Origin: a virus
Lineage: Duplodnaviria; Heunggongvirae; Uroviricota; Caudoviricetes
DNA: 12,475 nucleotides
Virus record (IMG/VR): IMGVR_UViG_2923286960_000002
Strand: one strand, 5' to 3'
In this document: in pieces, positions 1 through 12,475 of the stretch
Numbering within the stretch: the stretch's first letter is position 1
Layout: the number at the start of each line of letters is the position of its first letter
Notes under the pieces: generated by a model
Database searches by the model: none
The model's input: only the letters and a program-made list of their open reading frames with translations
Told to the model about the DNA's origin: nothing
Translations under genes and position numbers: made by a program

Positions 1-1230
1 ATGAGCAGAGCACTTAACAAACTGAGCGATACACAGCTGAGGAAAATCAACGGCACACCCGCCCAAAAAACAGCCTTTCTTAATGACGGTGGAAACCTGA
101 GCGTCAGGCATTCAACCAGCGGCCTTTTAACCTGGTATTTCACCTACAGGGCCGGAACGGGAAGGGGAGCACGACCGGAACGGATTAAGCTGGGAAATTA
201 TCCTGATCTGAGTCTGAAAGCTGCCAGGGAAAAAGCGGCACAGTGTCGCGCTTGGCTTGCTGAGGGGAAAAATCCACGTCATGAGATGAATTACACCGTA
301 CAGAAAGCGTTAAAGCCCGTAACGGTTGGCGATGCGCTTACCTACTGGCTTGAGTCTTACGTAAAGGAAAACCGCGTGGATTATGCCGCCCTGAAAAAGC
401 GCCTTAATAATCACGTAATACAGCACATTGGTGCTATGCCGCTGGATAAATGCGAGCTACGGCACTGGCTGGCCTGTTTTGACCAGGTGGCAAAGCGAAC
501 GCCTGTTACTGCCGGATTCTTGCTACAGACGTGCAAACAGGCGCTTAAGTTCTGCCGGAGGCGGCGCTATGCAATCAGCAACGTTCTTGATGATATGAGT
601 GTGGCAGACGTTGGGAAAAAACCGGATATAAGCGAGCGTGTCTTAAGCACCAAAGAACTTGGCGAATTATTGCAGGCACTGGACAAAAAAATATTTTCCC
701 CTTACTACGTCGCACTAATCCGCCTCCTGATTGTTTTCGGATGCCGGACGGTAGAACTGAGGTTATCGGAGATCAGCGAGTGGGATTTTACCGAAATGCT
801 CTGGACCGTGCCGAAAGAACACAGCAAAACGAAGGTGGCAATATTCCGGCCCATACCGGAAGCAATACTGCCGTTCGTCACGCAGCTGGTGGAGCAGAAC
901 AGGCACACGGGCTTATTGCTGGGGGAAGTGAAACAGGAAACAAGCGTGTCGCAGTACGGTAGATTAGCGCACAGGAGGCTAAAACACCCTCACTGGTCAC
1001 TGCATGACATCCGGCGCACCTTTACAACGATGCTGAACGATTTAGGCGTGGATCCTCACGTCGTGGAGCAGCTTACAGGTCATCAGATGCCAGGGATGCA
1101 ACGAGTCTATAACCATTCCCGTTATCTGGATGCGAAACGTGACGCGCTGGATATGTGGACGGAGCGGTTAGGGATACTGGCGGGAACACATGAAAACGTA
1201 ACCACATTGCCAATAGCCAGAGAAATATAA
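1..1230 (+). CDS. int: Tyrosine recombinase/integrase, P4 (CP4-57 IntA-like) family
   Basis: 409 aa ORF; C-terminal catalytic region HDIRRTFTTML...LTGHQ...RVYNHSRY matches the R/H-x-x-R/H/Y pattern of P4-type integrases; N-terminal arm-binding-like region. Window starts at its ATG. Confidence 0.93.
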   Translation: MSRALNKLSDTQLRKINGTPAQKTAFLNDGGNLSVRHSTSGLLTWYFTYRAGTGRGARPERIKLGNYPDLSLKAAREKAAQCRAWLAEGKNPRHEMNYTVQKALKPVTVGDALTYWLESYVKENRVDYAALKKRLNNHVIQHIGAMPLDKCELRHWLACFDQVAKRTPVTAGFLLQTCKQALKFCRRRRYAISNVLDDMSVADVGKKPDISERVLSTKELGELLQALDKKIFSPYYVALIRLLIVFGCRTVELRLSEISEWDFTEMLWTVPKEHSKTKVAIFRPIPEAILPFVTQLVEQNRHTGLLLGEVKQETSVSQYGRLAHRRLKHPHWSLHDIRRTFTTMLNDLGVDPHVVEQLTGHQMPGMQRVYNHSRYLDAKRDALDMWTERLGILAGTHENVTTLPIAREI

Positions 1231-5866: not shown

Positions 5867-5880
5867 TTTTTTGCAATGGC

Positions 5881-6104
5881 TGTCTACCCTGTCTACCTGA
5901 GTAAAGAAAAATACATTTAATTCAGTATATTAACTTAGGTAGACAGCCTTTTTTCACTGTCTACCTACTATCTACCCTCTCTACCTGATTTTACCTGAAT
6001 CAGACAGGGAGGTAGATACGGGGTAGATAGTGGATAAAAGCACTCTACCCCGCTGAAAGCCGCGCCATTACTGGCATGAGAGCCAGTAAGGTAGATAAGG
6101 TAGA
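5881..6104. repeat. Replication origin: about 11 iterons with TCTACC core in both orientations flanking an AT-rich spacer
   Basis: tgTCTACCc (5883), tgTCTACCt (5893), GGTAGAca (5939), TCTACC (5960, 5971, 5980), GGTAGA (6011, 6022), TCTACC (6044), GGTAGA (6090, 6099); AT-rich 5905-5935. Directly downstream of the replication gene, as in SaPI/PICI origins. Confidence 0.75.
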
Positions 6105-6154
6105 CAAGGGGAGGCACAACTCAAAACTTTTTAAACGAGGGGGTAAAAATAAAA

Positions 6155-6412
6155 ATGCGCACATCAGGAAAACTTAATAATCAGAAGAAGCAGCATAACC
6201 GCGCCATTGACCTTACAGAGCACTGGCTGAGAGTGGCGATAAAAATCATCGACCGCAACACGGGGGAAGGATACGCGAAAGCACATCCCGACCTGATAAG
6301 CGCATTCATGACCACGGCGGCGGCAAACTTTGCCACGCTGACAGAACGGGAGATTGCCGAAGCGGAACAGGTAACAACCATCAACGTTAAAACCGGAGAG
6401 GTGGAATCATGA
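6155..6412 (+). CDS. Hypothetical protein (85 aa)
   Basis: Strong SD GAGGGGG upstream; stop overlaps the SSB-like start (ATGA at 6409-6412). Confidence 0.5.
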   Translation: MRTSGKLNNQKKQHNRAIDLTEHWLRVAIKIIDRNTGEGYAKAHPDLISAFMTTAAANFATLTEREIAEAEQVTTINVKTGEVES

Positions 6413-6831
6413 CAGCACAGATAGCAGCTTACGGGCGGCTGGTGGACGACCCGCAGGTAAAACAGACCAGCAAGGGCACACCAATGACGCTGGCACGTAT
6501 GGCGGTCCCCCTTCCGTGCAGCCAGGCAGATGACGGAACGGCGACGATGTGGTTATCCGTCCTGGCATTTGGCAGACAGGCCGAAGCACTGGAAAGGCAC
6601 CGCAAGGGTGAACTCCTGAGCGTGGCGGGTAACATGCAGATCAGCCAGTGGACTGGGCAGAACTGAGAAACGCGGCAGGGCTGGCAGGTTATCGCAGACA
6701 GTGTAATCAGTGCGCGAACGGCGCGACTGGGCGGCAAAAAAGGTCAACAGGGCCAGGCTACTGACGCGCTGAACAGGGCAAAACAACAGGCGGGGAATGA
6801 TGATCCGTACGGGGATAACATACCGTTTTAA
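6409..6831 (+). pseudogene. ssb: SSB-like OB-fold protein interrupted by a single in-frame TGA (6664-6666); nonsense mutation, readthrough or sequencing error
   Basis: N-terminal 85 aa align to the SSB OB fold (YGRLVDDPQVKQTSKG...WLSVLAFGRQAEALERHRKGELLSVAGNMQISQWTGQN). The same frame continues after the TGA for 54 codons and ends in the SSB acidic tip ...DDPYGDNIPF. The TGA sits where SSB has a conserved Gly codon. Confidence 0.7.
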
Positions 6832-6846
6832 GCGACGAGTGACAGA

Positions 6847-6869
6847 AGCCGGAGCAATCCGGCTTTTTT
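6847..6869 (+). terminator. Rho-independent terminator
   Basis: Stem agccgga/tccggct, loop gcaa, followed by a T run. Confidence 0.6.
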
Positions 6870-6917
6870 ACGGGTCCTCCTGGCGGGGTGGGCCTGAACA
6901 CGGGGCGGGAGGCGCGG
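6869..6917 (+). other. Degenerate cos-like sequence, paralogous to the cos at 9311-9360
   Basis: tacgggtcctcctgg...acggggcgggaggcgcgg parallels tacgggtcctttccgg...acggggcggcgacctcgcgg, but the cohesive-end core is altered. Confidence 0.45.
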
Positions 6918-7044
6918 AAAAAAGCGCATTTTTGTGATTTTATCGTCATCATCATCATGAGCGTAATTTATTGTTTTTAATTGTTTTGATGCAAAAAAGA
7001 TGATGGTTATGGTTAATTTTTGTTCGACATCTTTGCAGGCAGAT

Positions 7045-7085
7045 AAAAAAGCCCGATAAGGTCAGAGGTGGCTTATCGGGCTTTT
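7045..7085. terminator. Bidirectional hairpin terminator
   Basis: Perfect 10-bp stem gcccgataag/cttatcgggc with 11-nt loop, A run upstream and T run downstream. Confidence 0.5.
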
Positions 7086-7161: not shown

Positions 7162-7211
7162 ATTGCACAAAATGCAATCATGATTATAATCAGAGCTGGA
7201 TGAACATCCAG
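7162..7211 (+). promoter_or_regulatory. Head-operon promoter with overlapping palindromes
   Basis: -35 TTGCAC (7163-7168), 16 nt spacer, perfect -10 TATAAT (7185-7190); palindrome ATTGCAcaaaaTGCAAT (7162-7178) over the -35 and perfect 16-bp palindrome CTGGATGAACATCCAG (7196-7211) near +1. Confidence 0.5.
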
Positions 7212-7246
7212 TTATGATTTTTTAAGTCGAAGAGGAATTTCTTACT

Positions 7247-7453
7247 ATGGCTGAAGAGAAAAAAGGCGGTGTTTCGGTGTACATAAGCCCCGAAATCGTG
7301 GAGGTGCTCAAGCAGCGCCACAAAAAAAACTATGAGGCTGGCGTGGCGGCTGGACTGGATCCGCTGATGACGCCGGAGCCGTCGATAGGTTCACTTGTAC
7401 GCTCTTATTTACTTGCGGCGCTTGGGATGCATAAAAATTATGGGGGTGAATAA
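7247..7453 (+). CDS. Hypothetical protein (68 aa), first gene of the head operon
   Basis: SD GAGGA upstream; stop overlaps the capsid gene start (TAATG); no recognisable family by eye. Confidence 0.5.
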   Translation: MAEEKKGGVSVYISPEIVEVLKQRHKKNYEAGVAAGLDPLMTPEPSIGSLVRSYLLAALGMHKNYGGE

Positions 7454-8508
7454 TGGCAGGAAAAGCAACGGCACTTAACACTAACCAGCTTTTCATGTAC
7501 CTGAATCGCGGGGATATTGCGGATTTTAAATTCAGCCCTCTGTTTACCACGCTGTTTTTCCCGAACGTGGCGACATTCAGCACGCAAAACATCATGCTGG
7601 ATACCCTGGACATTGAAGAAGTCACCATGTCGGCGTTTTGTTCGCCTATGGTGGGTAGCCAGGTTCAGCGCGATAAAGGGTACGAAACCAGCACGATTAA
7701 ACCTGGCTACATGAAGCCAAAGCACGAAATCGATCCAACGAAAACCATCATGCGCATGGCTGGAGAAGATCCGGCACAGCTTAACGACCCTACCTATCGC
7801 CGTATGCGCCTGATTACTGGCAATATGCGCCGCCAGATAAACGCCATAAAAGCGCGCGTGGAATGGCTGGCGGTAAATGCGGTAACGACCGGAAAAAACA
7901 TCATTGAGGGCGAAGGCATAGAGCGCTATGAAATCGACTGGAAGATCCCAAGTAAAAATATCGCCAGACAGGGACATGGCAAAAAGTGGTCAGAGGCAGA
8001 TAAGGAAACACACGATCCAATCTATGACATTGAGCTATACGCAGATCAGGCAGGTTGCCCCGCAAACGTCATGATTATGGGCGTTGATGTATGGCGCATG
8101 TTACGCAGCTTTAAAAAATTCCGTGAACTGTACGATCTCTCCCGTGGTTCAGAATCCGCCGCAGAGCTGGCATGTAAAAACCTGGGCGAAGTGGTGAGCT
8201 TTAAAGGCTATCTTGGTGATCTGGCCCTTATCGTCTATTCCGGCAAATACACTGACAGCGACGGCACAGAAAAATATTTCCTTGAGCCTGATTTGCTTGT
8301 CCTGGGCAACACCAACAATAAAGGGCTGGTGGCCTATGGTGCGATTATGGATCAGGACGCAGTAAGAACGGGGGCAACGCAAAACATGTACTACCCGAAA
8401 AACTGGATTGAGGACGGAGATCCGGCGATTGAGTACGTGCAGACGCACAGCGCACCGCAGCCGGTTCCGGCAGATATTCGCAAATTTGTTACTGTCAAAA
8501 TTGCTTAA
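7453..8508 (+). CDS. Major capsid protein, lambda gpE family
   Basis: 351 aa; conserved blocks shared with lambda gpE as recalled: FKFSPLF..LFF, PGYMKPKHE, EDPAQLNDPTYRR, WSEADKETHDP, VSFKGYLGD.A.IVYSG.Y, LVLGNT, YPKNW...GDPA, SAP. Confidence 0.92.
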   Translation: MAGKATALNTNQLFMYLNRGDIADFKFSPLFTTLFFPNVATFSTQNIMLDTLDIEEVTMSAFCSPMVGSQVQRDKGYETSTIKPGYMKPKHEIDPTKTIMRMAGEDPAQLNDPTYRRMRLITGNMRRQINAIKARVEWLAVNAVTTGKNIIEGEGIERYEIDWKIPSKNIARQGHGKKWSEADKETHDPIYDIELYADQAGCPANVMIMGVDVWRMLRSFKKFRELYDLSRGSESAAELACKNLGEVVSFKGYLGDLALIVYSGKYTDSDGTEKYFLEPDLLVLGNTNNKGLVAYGAIMDQDAVRTGATQNMYYPKNWIEDGDPAIEYVQTHSAPQPVPADIRKFVTVKIA

Positions 8509-8519
8509 CGGGGGATTCT

Positions 8520-8855
8520 ATGGACACTCCATACATTGAGTTATTTGCAGGCAGTCAGCAGGTCGCCACGACGCTGGTACATTTTGCCGCTGATGCTGGC
8601 GTTATTCAGGAATTTACCCCGCTGATGCTGGCGGACAATGGCGAGTTTAAGCCGTGGGATGGTCAGGAATCTGGCAAGGCTGTTTATCTGACTTCGTATC
8701 CTGTGGACACGTCAAAGCAGAAATCAGCACAGTGTTACAAGACGGGGATATTCAATATTGCCGCCGTTAACTGGCCTGAGAGCGTCGACACCGATGCGAA
8801 AAAATGCGCCGCCTTTGCGGGTTCCGGCGTATCCGTTCAGCCGCTGGCCCGATAA
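8520..8855 (+). CDS. Head decoration protein, lambda gpD-like
   Basis: 111 aa; TPLMLADNGEFKPWDG..., YKTGIFNIAAVNWPESVDTDAKKCAAFAGSGVSV parallels lambda gpD TPLMLDTSSRKLVAWDG..., YKSGTF.YEDVLWPEA..DETKKRTAFAGTAISIV. Confidence 0.85.
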   Translation: MDTPYIELFAGSQQVATTLVHFAADAGVIQEFTPLMLADNGEFKPWDGQESGKAVYLTSYPVDTSKQKSAQCYKTGIFNIAAVNWPESVDTDAKKCAAFAGSGVSVQPLAR

Positions 8856-8867
8856 GCAGGGGGAACG

Positions 8868-9281
8868 ATGGCAACGAATGAAAGCATCATGACGCTACCG
8901 CTGGCGAGTAAATTTAAAGCCGAAGCGCGGGCAATGGCTGACAGAGGTTTATCAACCTATGAGGCCGTATATCAACTAAACAAACTGGAAGAGCAGGACA
9001 AGCCGCGCGCTGATGCGATTATGGCGCTTCATGAGCATAAAGACTATCAGCCGCTGTTACGTGCAATGGCAAACGTGCCATGTATTAGCGTCGATAATGC
9101 TCGTGAAATCCTGAACATGACCATAGAGCAGGAGCGCCCAAAGGTTGCACCAGAGCTTACCGCAGCCTTTGAAAACTTTATGGACATGCACAGCCCGCAA
9201 GCCGTATCAGCTGGCATGGCATACGATGGCAGAAACCAGGGCGATGACGGCGACATCGATCGCATACTGAAAACCATCTGA
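8868..9281 (+). CDS. Hypothetical protein (137 aa), last gene of the head operon
   Basis: Good SD and protein-like composition; position analogous to lambda FI but no similarity recognised by eye. Confidence 0.5.
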   Translation: MATNESIMTLPLASKFKAEARAMADRGLSTYEAVYQLNKLEEQDKPRADAIMALHEHKDYQPLLRAMANVPCISVDNAREILNMTIEQERPKVAPELTAAFENFMDMHSPQAVSAGMAYDGRNQGDDGDIDRILKTI

Positions 9282-9286
9282 GACAA

Positions 9287-9311
9287 GGCCGGAGAAATCC
9301 GGCTTTTTTTT
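9287..9311 (+). terminator. Rho-independent terminator
   Basis: Stem gccgga/tccggc with gaaa loop followed by T8; near-identical to the hairpin at 6847-6869. Confidence 0.6.
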
Positions 9312-9392
9312 ACGGGTCCTTTCCGGCATATGGACCCGTTACGGGGCGGCGACCTCGCGGGTTTTCGCTATTTATGACGTTTTTCCGTGAAG
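9311..9392 (+). other. Lambda-type cos site (cos1): cosQ/cosN plus a short cosB-like segment
   Basis: tacgggtcctttccgg...ccgttacg | GGGCGGCGACCT (9344-9355) CGCGGGTTTTCGCTATTTATGA matches the lambda right-end/left-end junction as recalled, with the 12-nt cohesive end identical; followed by an R3-like cgtttttccgtg. Lies ~90 bp upstream of the Nu1-like gene. Confidence 0.85.
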
Positions 9393-9444
9393 GTGACACC
9401 ACCACCACTTGATTAATATTTAACCATGCAGTTAAGGTAACATT

Positions 9445-9885
9445 ATGATTGATAAAGCTTGTTTTGTAAGTCAGCAGGAAATAGCTGAACATTTCAAGGT
9501 TAACAGAACCACTATTCGCGCATGGACCAAACAGGGGATGCCGTATCTTAATGCGGATCGCGGAAAGTCTGGCGGTTATCACATCGGGCATACATTGCTT
9601 TGGTCTTCAGGTAAAAGCCGTCTTGAGGCCATCAGATATCACGTAGAAACCAGTGTGCTGGAAAAAATTATGTTTGCCAGGCTGCTTTCATCTGAGCGTG
9701 ACGAGTACTCCAGTGAAGAAACAGAACATAGATTTGATGAAGGTTTACAGATTTACGGCTACTCACCGGAAGAAGTGAGCAAAGCGCGAAATAAAATGGC
9801 CGGCTTTCTGGCTGGGTGGCGTCATGCCGTAAGCGTTCGCCGTGCCAGCATGGAACAATCAGTCGTTACAGAACAGCAAAGTTAA
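9445..9885 (+). CDS. Nu1-like HTH protein: small terminase subunit or TerS-mimicking packaging redirector (Rpp-like)
   Basis: 146 aa; N-terminus FVSQQEIAEHFKVNRTTIRAWTKQGMPYL..GKSGGYHIGHTLLW resembles the lambda Nu1 winged-HTH DNA-binding domain (QLADIFGASIRTIQNWQEQGMPVL...); SD AAGGT upstream. Confidence 0.75.
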   Translation: MIDKACFVSQQEIAEHFKVNRTTIRAWTKQGMPYLNADRGKSGGYHIGHTLLWSSGKSRLEAIRYHVETSVLEKIMFARLLSSERDEYSSEETEHRFDEGLQIYGYSPEEVSKARNKMAGFLAGWRHAVSVRRASMEQSVVTEQQS

Positions 9886-10011: not shown

Positions 10012-10079
10012 TCTTTATTTTTACTTAGTTATCAAATGGATATGACAAACAATTAAACAACAACCTCCCTCTAAAAAAG

Positions 10080-10150
10080 CTCATAAATAGCGAAAAACCG
10101 CGAGGTCGCCGCCCCGTAACGGGCCATAATTCCAGGAAGGACCCGACGAC
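10080..10150 (-). other. Second lambda-type cos site (cos2), inverted relative to cos1
   Basis: Reverse complement reads cgggtccttcctgg...ggcccgttacg GGGCGGCGACCT CGCGGTTTTTCGCTATTTATGAG (12-mer at complement of 10103-10114), near-identical to cos1 over ~45 bp. Confidence 0.8.
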
Positions 10151-10178: not shown

Positions 10179-10460
10179 ATGACAGAAGCCGAAATACTGC
10201 GATTAATCCGCCGCGTTGCCGGAATCAGCCAGCAGGCCGACGAACAGACCACGCAGCCGGACAGCGTGACCGCCGAAAATTATGTTCGTGTGGTTGCTGA
10301 GATGATTCGCCGTAATGGTATCCAGCTTAATGATGTGGATATGCGCAACATACGGATCCGCGTTCTTGAAATGCTGGCCTACAATCGCCGCGTGGCACTG
10401 TATCGGGAAACGGAGAAAATTACGTACCACTGGAAGAAGCCGGAGCGGTTGCGGCGGTAA
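10179..10460 (+). CDS. Hypothetical protein (93 aa)
   Basis: ATG preceded by GGGGG SD; charged, helical-looking composition; no family recognised by eye. Confidence 0.45.
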   Translation: MTEAEILRLIRRVAGISQQADEQTTQPDSVTAENYVRVVAEMIRRNGIQLNDVDMRNIRIRVLEMLAYNRRVALYRETEKITYHWKKPERLRR

Positions 10461-10628
10461 CTGGTTGATATTTTCGAAATTCGCCAGCGGCGAACATCGG
10501 GGAAACCAGCCTAACCCGTTGATATTTTCGGGAACCTCAAATTGAGGAGGTCGGAAACATAACCCGTCATATTCTGGATGCTGATAATTACCACGCAGCC
10601 CATTAAGGCCTAACCCGTTGATTCTTCC
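10458..10628. repeat. Four direct repeats with TAACCCGTTGAT-like core at ~50-bp spacing
   Basis: taactggttgatattttcg (10458), taacccgttgatattttcg (10512), taacccgtcatattctgg (10560), taacccgttgattcttcc (10611). Confidence 0.55.
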
Positions 10629-10633
10629 ACAAT

Positions 10634-10798
10634 CCCCCATTGGGGGAGGCTGGGCGGCCTGCTGTGGGCTTTTCCACCATTGGTGGAAAGGCGCACATCT
10701 GGATCATCATTACGGTGATCAAGGGTATGTAAAACCCACCAGCCTGATTGACATTTAACCGGAAAAAAGCCAGGTAGCCCCATTATGGGGATCCCCAT
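10634..10798. repeat. Cluster of short GC-rich palindromes
   Basis: CCCCCATTGGGGG (10634-10646), TTCCACCATTGGTGGAA (10672-10688), CCCCATTATGGGG (10778-10790), ATGGGGATCCCCAT (10785-10798). Confidence 0.4.
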
Positions 10799-11014: not shown

Positions 11015-12475
11015 TTATTCATCTTTCGGCGCAGAATGCTGGCGACCAAAAATCACCTCCATCCGCGCACCGCCCAGCATGCTCTCTCCGGCGACGATTT
11101 TACCCTCATATTGCTCGGTGATTTCGCGGGCTACCGCCAGCCCTACACCTTGCCCAGGGCGTAAAGTATCAACCCGTTGACCACGGTCGAAAATGACCTC
11201 TCGCTTGCTTAATGGAATACCGGGGCCATCATCCTCGACCACAATATAGAGATGCTCGTCGGTTTGCCTTGCAGAAATTTCGACAAACTCGAGGCAATAT
11301 TTACAGGCATTATCCAGCACGTTGCCCATCACCTCGACAAAATCGTTCTGCTCACCGACAAAGCTGATCTCTGGCGAAATATCGAGAGAGATATTGACCC
11401 CTTTGCGTTGATACACTTTGTTCAGCGCTGAGGTGAGATTGTCCAGCAGTGGGGCGACCGGATGCAGCTCGCGGCTGAGCAATGTCCCGCCGCGCATACT
11501 GGCACGATGCAGGTAGTAGCCAATTTGCTGTGAAATGCGGCTGATTTGCTCCAGCATTACCGGCTCAGCATCACTGACGCTCATCTTTTCACTACGCAGA
11601 GAACGCAGCGTACTTTGCAGCACCGCCAGTGGCGTTTTCAGACTATGGGTCAGGTCGGTGAGCGTCGTACGGTATTTGTCGTAACGTTCGCGTTCACTTT
11701 TTAACAATCGGTTCAGGTTTCGTACCAGACTGGTCAGTTCTCGCGTTGTGGCTGGATTGAGCAATTCGCGGTTATGTTCTTCCAGTTCGCGGACTTCTTT
11801 TGCCAGGGCTTCGATGGGGCGTAAACTCCACCAGGCGGCGACCCACAGCAGCGGGATCACTAACAGCAGATTGGCTGAGAGCACATAGATAAACCAGCTC
11901 CAGACCATATAGGAACTTTTTAGCTCCACCGGAATGGTATCCACCACCACAATGGTTAATTTTGGCATCCGCGATGTTGCCGGGTAGACGTTTACTGCCA
12001 CCGAGTGGGTCATCTCCGCGTCGTCATCATCTTCCCGCACTTCCTGCAACTGTTGCTGTATCGAATGATCTCCACTCAGCAAGAGGCTGGTATCGTTAAC
12101 ATCCGCTTCAATTTCATGAAAACCATTCGATTTCAGCCAGTCAGGCTGGATCATCTTCATCAGCCAGGGCACGTCACGTTGCGCCCATAAAAGCTGCCCG
12201 TTCTCATCATAAATTAGCGTCATGGTGGGGCTTTGCTTGTCGATATTTTCGGGTAACTCGACATGCAACTTATTGTTTTCCCACTTCGCAAGGGTATAGA
12301 ACAGATTGCTCTCGCCACGTAACAGCCGAAACGTAGTTTTATCGAAACTGACGCTATAACCGATCAGCGCGACCATTCCGTAGGCAAGCGAAAGCACCAG
12401 TACTACCGCTGCCGTTGCCAACAGAAAACGTACCCGCAGCGAGAGCGGGAAAAAAAGACGCAGTAATTTTTTCAT
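11015..12475 (-). CDS. phoQ: Sensor histidine kinase PhoQ (chromosomal, Escherichia/Shigella-type)
   Basis: 486 aa full-length ORF; N-terminus [33 protein letters not shown], periplasmic acidic patch [12 protein letters not shown]-box [12 protein letters not shown], and G-box/ATP-lid motifs DDGPGIP and GQGVGLAV. Window ends at its ATG. Confidence 0.95.

Follow-up and report, generated by a model that had tools for sequence, protein, structure and literature searches.

The packaging of Gram-negative cos-type phage-inducible chromosomal islands (PICIs) is best described for EcCICFT073, an Escherichia coli island with two lambda-type sites, cos1 and cos2, in which cosQ and cosN are lambda-like and cosB is of a non-phage kind (Fillol-Salom 2018, PMC6092414; Fillol-Salom 2019, PMC6739421). 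RppA (c1503) forms a heterodimer with the TerS of the helper phage, redirecting TerS to the cosB of cos1, and transfer by lambda and phi80 is lost once both cos sites are deleted (PMC6092414, PMC6739421). The same papers leave open how DNA of phage size is cut from an island of ~12 kb, and neither of these two EcCICFT073 packaging papers mentions a third cos site (PMC6739421, PMC6092414). A different strategy is followed by SaPIbov5 (PMC6092414) and 11capE (PMC10111431), in which a copy of the helper cos (~90% identical) is read directly by the helper TerS; in 11capE, a helper-embedded PICI, island and helper cos are ~90% identical (PMC10111431).

The locus described here resembles the second strategy in that it contains a copy of a phage cos, but it differs from SaPIbov5 and 11capE in that its phage-native cos is accompanied, on the same island, by an Rpp-dependent cos from another lineage. 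A helper-phage cos on a PICI is of a known kind; what is notable is the coexistence of the two, in a variant of the island that is commoner than the model island itself.

Results

An EcCICFT073-family island with a third cos-like site

The DNA analyzed here (12,475 nucleotides, hereafter the window) is an EcCICFT073-family PICI in E. coli and adjoins phoQ. Its sequence matches E. coli B-2207 and NCTC86 at 100% identity and CFT073 at 96.5% (92% coverage). RefSeq annotation and Pfam give the gene order integrase, AlpA-like HTH protein, Icd-like protein, primase, ssb, capsid, decoration protein, and several small ORFs (Table 1); ssb is interrupted by an internal stop in the strain of the window. 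Rfam and tRNA scans were empty. The lambda-type cos1, cos2, and the rpp gene are the elements already known for this island family. Here, cos1 and cos2 form a 72-nt inverted repeat that is 86% complementary, and the N terminus of Rpp matches the TerS family phrog_57.

The original prediction had placed a degenerate third cos-like site upstream of the head operon. We found a third cos-like site (site A, 6870-7034), oriented as cos1 and directly upstream of the head-gene module. The core string at 6900-6917 is ACGGGGCGGGAGGCGCGG, made up of the left half-site ACG/GGGCGG, which is the same in lambda and cos1, and a CGCGG right flank (slashes mark the predicted nick positions). The frame ACG/.../CGCGG is common to lambda, Eeyore, mEp460, 606R10, and the Stx phages. 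From the cosQ heptamer to the first G of the core there are 31 nt, compared to 30 in both cos1 and lambda. To the right, the two cosB repeats flank an AT-rich center carrying a weak IHF-like match; across the window, the IHF consensus is matched with one mismatch at best, and the number of such matches is not above chance. At each of the terminators that enclose the site (6844-6869 and 7045-7085), a GC-rich stem-loop is followed by a T-run. We also considered that the block might be kept as a promoter for the head genes, and dropped this idea, as a promoter scan found nothing inside the block.

Table 1. Coordinates of site A, the published packaging elements, and flanking genes in the window
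Feature	Position	Strand	Details
Tyrosine integrase	1-1230		One end of window
Terminator 1	6844-6869	+	Hairpin GCCGGAGCAATCCGGC (6848-6863) plus T6 (6864-6869); ends replication/ssb module; fold -18.6 kcal/mol, z = -4.8
cosQ-like element ACGGGTCCT	6870-6878	+	Heptamer GGGTCCT at 6872-6878; same as lambda and cos1 cosQ
cosQ-cosN spacer CCTGGCGGGGTGGGCCTGAAC	6879-6899	+	Long-tailed Stx phage type, unlike lambda/cos1 spacer; from alignments
cosN-like core ACG/GGGCGGGAGG/CGCGG	6900-6917	+	Nick positions predicted by analogy with lambda
cosB-like region, "subtype 1"	6918-7034	+	~90% identity to phage cos regions directly upstream of terS
cosB left repeat ATCGTCATCATCATCAT	6942-6958	+	From inverted-repeat analysis
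Weak IHF-like match	6964-6976	-	One mismatch; not significant alone
cosB inverted right repeat GATGATGGTTATGG	6999-7012	+	From inverted-repeat analysis
Conserved cosB end block TTTTTGTTCGACATCTTT	7017-7034	+	Phage homology stops here
Terminator 2, bidirectional-looking hairpin AAAAAAGCCCGATAAGG...CTTATCGGGCTTTT	7045-7085	+	Closes cassette; fold -25.6 kcal/mol, z = -4.0
Head-gene module	7247-9281	+	Between site A and cos1: 68-aa ORF, capsid, decoration protein, 137-aa ORF; RefSeq annotation
Lambda E-like major capsid	7453-8508	+	Pfam Phage_cap_E, 4.6e-50
Lambda D-like decoration protein	8520-8855	+	Pfam HDPD, 1.3e-17
cos1 (published)	9285-9444	+	Hairpin 9288-9303, T8, cosQ 9314-9320, cohesive end GGGCGGCGACCT 9344-9355, Rpp-dependent cosB
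rpp (redirecting phage packaging; RppA/RppC homologue)	9445-9885	+	Between cos1 and cos2; PDB 6HLK RppC, E = 3.3e-31
cos2 (published)	10074-10145	-	Inverted relative to cos1; cosN 10103-10114 and cosQ 10138-10144 on minus strand
phoQ	11015-12475	-	Other end of window

Resemblance between site A and cos1

Site A had been described as parallel to cos1 almost position for position over ~70 bp, with a changed cohesive-end core. The strings behind this description are where they were said to be (ggcgggaggcgcgg at 6904-6917, ggcggcgacctcgcgg at 9345-9360), and the likeness is not confined to the hairpin, yet it is layered. The hairpins themselves, GCCGGAGCAATCCGGC (6848-6863) and GCCGGAGAAATCCGGC (9288-9303), are near-identical, with the pattern GCCGGAG[C/A]AATCCGGC, and each folds into a strong stem-loop with a U-run after it (site A, -18.6 kcal/mol, z = -4.8; cos1, -17.0 kcal/mol, z = -3.9). 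In a pairwise alignment, hairpin, T-run, and ACGGGTCCT are identical at 30/36 positions (6847-6880 versus 9287-9322); further on, the 9-mer ACGGGGCGG is common to site A (6900-6908) and cos1 (9341-9349). Past the T-run, the alignment scores 14, against 8.5 +/- 1.5 for shuffled sequences, of which 13 in 2,000 reach that score. Past cosQ alone, the alignment is not significant (267/2,000 shuffles reach the score), and downstream of the core it is at chance level (1,835/2,000; 52% global identity). Thus, the terminator and cosQ part is a close repeat, as proposed, but the sequence to the right of the core is unrelated to cos1, and an Rpp-dependent cosB like that of cos1 is absent from site A. The lambda/phi80-type cohesive end GGGCGGCGACCT, allowing up to 3 mismatches, was found only at 9344-9361 (plus strand) and 10097-10114 (minus strand), and not at site A.

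Two things account for the likeness to cos1. At both sites, cosQ is directly preceded by an island terminator hairpin, the two hairpins being paralogues, and cos sites of the gpA type all have the cosQ GGGTCCT, a spacer of ~30 bp, and the half-site ACG/GGGCGG. The shared left half of cosN reflects this family-level conservation of cos architecture. A direct duplication with cos1 over the whole repeat was rejected, since only 6847-6880 versus 9287-9322 exceeds the conservation expected within the family. A deletion by recombination between the two copies of hairpin and cosQ, which had also been predicted, was seen in 0 of 5,426 complete genomes.

Given that ACGGGTCCT and ACG/GGGCGG are the same as in lambda and the spacing is almost so (31 versus 30 nt), one can envision that site A serves lambda-type helpers as an extra termination site. 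A terminase that had started at cos1 would cut at site A, which has the same orientation and lies 2.44 kb upstream, when the head is full, and the packaged lengths would not be whole multiples of the island. Such a role would bear on the cutting of phage-sized DNA from a ~12-kb island, the point left open in the published papers. However, the core is unlike that of lambda in its right half and in length, so that the ends would not be complementary to those of cos1; EcCICFT073 transfers well without the block; and the argument for this role is one of arithmetic and analogy. We consider it a minor and very improbable reading.

The block matches the cos region of long-tailed Stx phages

When the whole window was searched against a phage collection, the short matches fell into two classes: cos1 matched lambda-like phages, and 6865-7034 matched Stx-converting phages. 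In that collection, the matches of the latter segment were confined to the Rz-terS intergenic region of Stx phages, at 87-91% identity over ~170 bp. Within it, the block of 165 bp at 6870-7034 shares 90.4% identity with Stx2_112808 (LC567830) and 87.3% with VT1-Sakai (AP000400), compared to 57% for cos1. The homology starts right after the T-run, spans cosQ, spacer, core, and ~117 bp rightwards, and stops at TTTTTGTTCGACATCTTT. In lambdoid phages, cos sits in the gap between Rz and the small terminase gene, and the counterpart of the block in the Stx phages is an unannotated gap between these same genes. The matching phages, the "lambda-like long-tailed" Stx phages of the literature, encode a TerL of the gpA family (ATPase and nuclease domains, E ~1e-82) and a TerS of the DUF1441/phrog_141 family; the DUF1441 TerS has no sequence-detectable relative in the PDB.

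This comparison disposes of the primary reading in the original prediction, that site A arose as a copy of the lambda-type cos1 of the island and has since decayed. Although the hairpin, T-run, and cosQ (30/36) and ACGGGGCGG are indeed held in common, the sequence to the right of cosQ is 90% identical to the cos of another lineage and at chance level against cos1, the spacer and core match the Stx lineage, and in CFT073 the hairpin is present without any cos after it. We regard decay from cos1, or from lambda cos, as refuted.

To place site A among its relatives, related copies were gathered from IMG/VR by three anchors and classed by what comes next; the phage-context set comprised 69 copies with a DUF1441 terS directly after. 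The heptamer GGGTCCT is invariant in this set (69/69), and the cores vary in their center: GGGCGGGCGGCGCGG, GGGCGGGCGGGCGCGG, GGGCGGGTCGGCGCGG, GGGCGGACGGCGCGG, and GGGCGGGCGCGG. The core types of the phage lineage can also be written as GGGCGGGCGG(G)CGCGG, GGGCGGGTCGGCGCGG, or GGGCGGACGGCGCGG. Two cosB subtypes occur in the phages, and they covary perfectly with two variants of TerS (26/26 and 22/22); cosB subtype and TerS variant therefore behave as specificity pairs.

In the phage collection, no record starts or ends at the site A core, so that these records give no termini evidence on the nicks. In full-text literature searches, we found no mapped nick positions or cohesive ends for the long-tailed Stx lineage and no third PICI cos. 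A scan of genome contigs with a loose cosQ...cosN pattern gave, among the matches listed, only chance matches in high-GC genomes.

Sequence conservation at site A

Compared with the subtype 1 phage consensus, the majority sequence of site A differs at 23 of the 65 columns that vary among phages and at 0 of the 118 that are invariant (Fisher 2e-12). Its identity to the phages has a mean of 0.87 and a maximum of 0.91, with phage-phage values ranging from 0.82 to 1.0. The core that had been called changed does differ from that of cos1, but it is the core of another phage lineage. The exact core GGGCGGGAGGCGCGG, with A at position 8, occurs in island contexts only (17/17, versus 0/69 terS-linked copies); an A at position 8 is also found in isolated phages, namely, mEp460 (GGGCGGGAGCGG/CGCGG) and 606R10 and PhiR40_1 (GGGCGGGAGCGT/CGCGG). 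In length, the core matches those of Stx phages, and in its A at position 8 it matches mEp460-type cores. By these measures, site A is not decayed. The 0/118 pattern could, however, also arise without selection in the island, if the block came in recently from an unsampled phage.

Variation within the islands can be set beside this. Point mutations in cosQ were present in 3 of 17 to 18 window-type copies (GGGTTCT twice, GGGGCCT once, representing two independent events), compared to 0 of ~65 phage and site B copies (see below for site B), and private variants within the window-type lineage also fall on phage-invariant positions. Between 6690 and 7275, the island copies vary little throughout; as the flanks share this low diversity with the block, it provides no evidence of site-specific constraint, and selection and a recent sweep are inseparable here. 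One IMG/VR contig (L085) starts 6 nt upstream of the predicted nick; we judged this to be an assembly break at a mosaic junction rather than cleavage.

Distribution of the block among E. coli genomes

The island of CFT073 shows what the locus looks like when the block is missing. There, the same hairpin is followed by GCGCCCA (7 nt) and then by terminator 2, so that the block is a cassette that an island may have or lack between the two terminators. The CFT073 hairpin comes after a perC gene, which is absent from the window. Since EcCICFT073 does not have the block, the published deletion of both cos sites is uninformative with regard to site A. Among 5,426 complete E. coli genomes, the window-type configuration was found in 167 and the empty CFT073-type configuration in 30; Nissle 1917 and IHE3034 are among the strains in which the block is present. 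Most genomes with the island have a single copy of this cos type (a median of 1 place per genome), and hence most of them have no resident matching prophage.

Sister islands with two Stx-type cos sites

Six IMG/VR loci (L017, L028, L035, L053, L071, and L076) have two Stx-type cos sites in direct orientation, 2.54 kb apart. Such a sister island is near-identical to the window from ssb through the site A core. Past the core, its cosB is of subtype 2 and is followed by a 75-aa ORF and by a ClpP-capsid fusion like that of Stx phages (50% identity). Where the window has cos1, the sister island has a fully phage-like subtype 1 cos ("site B"), and it lacks rpp. The two sequences become homologous again ~13 nt ahead of the 93-aa ORF (window position 10179). 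One of the sister islands adjoins a 3' terL fragment that is 72% identical to residues 335 to 707 of the Stx-phage TerL, a terL-abutting layout that corresponds to the "helper-embedded PICI" arrangement (PMC10111431). From these mosaic structures, it follows that the island family is tied to the long-tailed Stx phage lineage and that cos is a breakpoint at which head modules are exchanged. The original prediction had suggested that the head operon is a cassette bounded by cos-like repeats, and this gains partial support, in that the two lineages are alike up to the core and then carry different cosB and head modules.

At the site A slot of the sister islands, cosQ often reads AGGTACT, and spacer and core are altered along with it; cosB stays ~95% phage-like, and changes are also seen in the two arms of its candidate inverted repeat. 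The pattern suggests that selection on the elements for cleavage and termination is relaxed, or of another kind, at this slot.

A phage-like cosB next to altered cleavage elements brings to mind a decoy for terminase, a reading that the original prediction also offered, in which a cosB of the phage type would bind the helper TerS, cosN would be cut poorly, and the replicating island would titrate terminase and so interfere with phages of the lineage. That cosB is kept while cosQ, spacer, and core diverge in the sister islands, and that the exact core of the window is never next to terS, would fit such a role. Against this, cosQ, spacer, and the left half-site are intact in the window, an A at position 8 occurs in viable phages, and the cosB inverted-repeat arms are themselves changed in the sister islands. 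We know of no precedent for a DNA decoy of this kind and consider it, like the extra termination site, a minor alternative, improbable if somewhat less so.

The main rival, and a serious one, is that site A is a vestigial module junction, left over from the swapping of late genes. Recombination in the cosQ-cosN segment or at terminase-cut ends would have brought site A in with a captured or ancestral head module, and it would now be uncut and unused. Such a history would account for the two island lineages being near-identical from ssb to the cosN core and then wholly different until just before the 93-aa gene, and for the mutations that we see: those in cosQ in some window-type copies, the private window-type variants at phage-invariant positions, and the cosQ and core changes at the slot in sister islands. 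Also in its favor, the CFT073 island without the block still transfers with lambda and phi80. On the other hand, the majority sequence is unchanged at all 118 phage-invariant columns despite ~10 to 13% divergence from the sampled phages, although here again a recent transfer from an unsampled phage could be the explanation, without selection. The same homology boundaries are found in three independent island contexts (site A with subtype 1, site A with subtype 2, and site B with subtype 1), and at these three slots the block is trimmed exactly to the functional unit of a cos. The block is also ~5 times commoner than the empty variant. On balance, we consider a vestigial junction less likely than not, while giving it more weight than any other alternative.

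Discussion

The homology, anatomy, distribution, and mosaic structure of site A are direct observations, and they lead us to conclude that 6870-7034 is very probably a discrete, captured heterologous cos cassette of ~165 bp, comprising cosQ, cosN, and cosB, which lies between two island terminators and comes from the long-tailed Stx/O157 "Sp" lambdoid lineage. Helpers of the long-tailed Stx/Sp lineage may still be able to package from the cassette, and we give this close to an even chance; for the statement as a whole, cassette origin together with predicted function, the balance is an even one. Weighing against function are the cosQ mutations in window-type copies, the altered cosQ, spacer, and core at this slot in sister islands, the absence of the exact core from terS-linked copies, and the lack of a resident matching prophage in most genomes with the island.

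We infer TerS binding, cleavage, and packaging along the following lines. A helper of the Stx/Sp lineage with a matching "MDGELKNMK..." TerS would replicate in a cell in which the island is induced. The helper's own TerS would bind the native-type cosB repeats (6942-6958 and 6999-7012) and place TerL on the core at 6900-6917, where TerL would nick. Packaging would run rightwards, in the same direction as from cos1, and, once the head is full, would end at the downstream copy of site A (cosQ plus cosN) in the island concatemer. Because the cosB of site A is phage-like, Rpp should not be required there. The island would in this way have a second helper range, besides the lambda/phi80-type route via cos1 and Rpp.

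More broadly, it is possible that islands of the EcCICFT073 family hold modular cos "keys" from different helper lineages, with an Stx/Sp-type cos alongside the Rpp-dependent cos1 giving two terminase specificities, and with Stx-type phages moving the island among commensal, probiotic, and pathogenic E. coli. We put this forward tentatively, with somewhat less confidence than the function of the cassette itself. The current picture of packaging in Gram-negative cos-PICIs was built on EcCICFT073, an island without the block, and the commoner variant has an extra cos. If that cos is functional, the helper range would be wider than the model suggests, as would the routes by which these islands reach other lineages of E. 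coli, among them Nissle 1917 and STEC, and some islands would join Rpp-dependent and Rpp-independent routes of hijacking. If our proposal is true, it would partly answer the published question why certain PICIs contain two or more cos sites (PMC6739421), and that question would become directly testable. Even if site A is nonfunctional, it marks cos as a breakpoint for the exchange of head modules between islands and phages.

At the level of sequence, site A has the marks of a gpA-type cos in its cosQ, spacing, and half-site and, by homology, in its cosB. It is useful to compare site A with the three kinds of cos that it most resembles. With cos1 and cos2 of EcCICFT073, it shares the island family, the orientation of cos1, the type of upstream hairpin, cosQ, and the left half-site of cosN; unlike them, its core is not GGGCGGCGACCT, its cosB is phage-native rather than Rpp specific, and it is absent from EcCICFT073 itself. 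The order of elements in lambda cos is also seen here, with GGGTCCT ~30 bp upstream of ACG/GGGCGG, followed by CGCGG and then by cosB inverted repeats around an AT-rich, IHF-like center, and the layout of the repeats parallels R3-I1-R2 within the R3-I1-R2-R1 of lambda cosB. However, site A has 10 nt between ACG and CGCGG where lambda has 12, its cosB is unrelated in sequence, and the TerS expected to partner it belongs to a different family (DUF1441).

The closest likeness is to the cos of Stx/O157 Sp-type phages, with the same cosQ, spacer, core type, cosB repeats, and end block. The differences are that no terS and terL come after site A, that the core has A at position 8 where the Stx phages have C or TC, and that a GC-rich island terminator stands before site A where the phages have an AT-rich GATAACCATTATC hairpin. 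That island terminator is a paralogue of the hairpin preceding cos1; the cos1 hairpin was flagged by a simple terminator scanner, and the one at 6844-6869 was passed over by the same scanner.

Variation around the cos block

The window and EcCICFT073, the island of strain CFT073 (L236), differ by two indels flanking one terminator, the hairpin at 6844-6869. On one side of this hairpin, the CFT073 island carries a gene for a PerC-family regulator between ssb and the hairpin (L236 7230-7478), and this gene is missing from the window at the corresponding position, ~6832-6846. On the other side, the window carries the Stx-phage-type cos block (site A), which is not found in the CFT073 island. The annotation of the window lists ssb as a pseudogene, broken by an internal stop into a shorter ORF and a remainder; the gene is intact in CFT073 and Nissle 1917.

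A terminator-like hairpin followed by a T-run lies immediately 5′ of a 68-aa ORF, the first ORF of the head-gene module (see table). Counting this hairpin as the third, three terminators separate ssb from the capsid genes, and thus expression of the head genes probably depends on antitermination or on an undetected promoter.

In the sister islands, a variant of site A recurs (L015, L018, L023, L027, L045, L055, L231, and L235). Here, cosQ is changed from GGGTCCT to AGGTACT, the spacer ends in GGCCTGTCC, and the core reads GGGCGGAGGGGCGCGG, while cosB subtype 2 is retained. This variant looks like a stable lineage and not the product of random decay. A terL 3′ fragment adjoins the sister island in L028 (1289-2401, minus strand) and in L023; it encodes the gpA nuclease domain only (370 aa, 72% identity to Stx-phage TerL). 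This arrangement fits a helper-embedded PICI that sits within the large terminase gene of its helper.

Elements in and around the cos sites

An 11-nt inverted repeat encloses cosQ and cosN of site A, its arms being the T-run 5′ of cosQ and the A-run 3′ of the core. The cos regions of Stx-lineage phages have an analogous pair, TTTTTGC...GGAAAAAGGC. One metagenomic viral contig, IMGVR_UViG_3300029623_000330 (L085), starts 3 nt before ACGGGGCGGGAGG; with lambda as the model, the predicted nick lies 6 nt downstream of this start. The start is probably an assembly break at the mosaic junction; it could also, with lower probability, be a physical DNA end.

The Rpp-dependent cosB of cos1, the published lambda-type cos of the island, contains a run resembling that of the Stx-phage-type cosB subtypes, in which the run lies one helical turn nearer to cosN. 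The resemblance is a hint at descent: the cosB of cos1, described as "non-phage", may have arisen from the cosB of the Stx-phage lineage.

Features of the window and their coordinates
Feature	Coordinates	Sequence	Remark
Iteron-like direct repeats	5880-5988, 6084-6106	CTGTCTACC / GGTAGACA	Immediately 3′ of primase gene
ssb	6409-6831		Shorter ORF, 6409-6666
Inverted repeat	6862-6872, 6915-6925	GCTTTTTTACG / CGGAAAAAAGC	
Terminator-like hairpin	7194-7223		
Stx-phage-type cosB run	compare 6947-6958	CATCATCATCAT or CACCATCACCACC	~43-44 nt from first G of cosN
cos1 cosB run	9398-9409	CACCACCACCAC	53 nt from first G of cosN
Perfect IHF-consensus matches	10458-10470, 10512-10524, 10611-10623	TATCAACNNGTTA-like	
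Direct repeats, ~40 nt	10509-10550, 10608-10649		Contain IHF matches

Other repeats

Between the 93-aa ORF and phoQ, three perfect IHF-consensus matches and the ~40-nt direct repeats probably represent attachment-site arm elements of the island. The iteron-like repeats downstream of the primase gene occupy the position where a PICI replication origin is expected.
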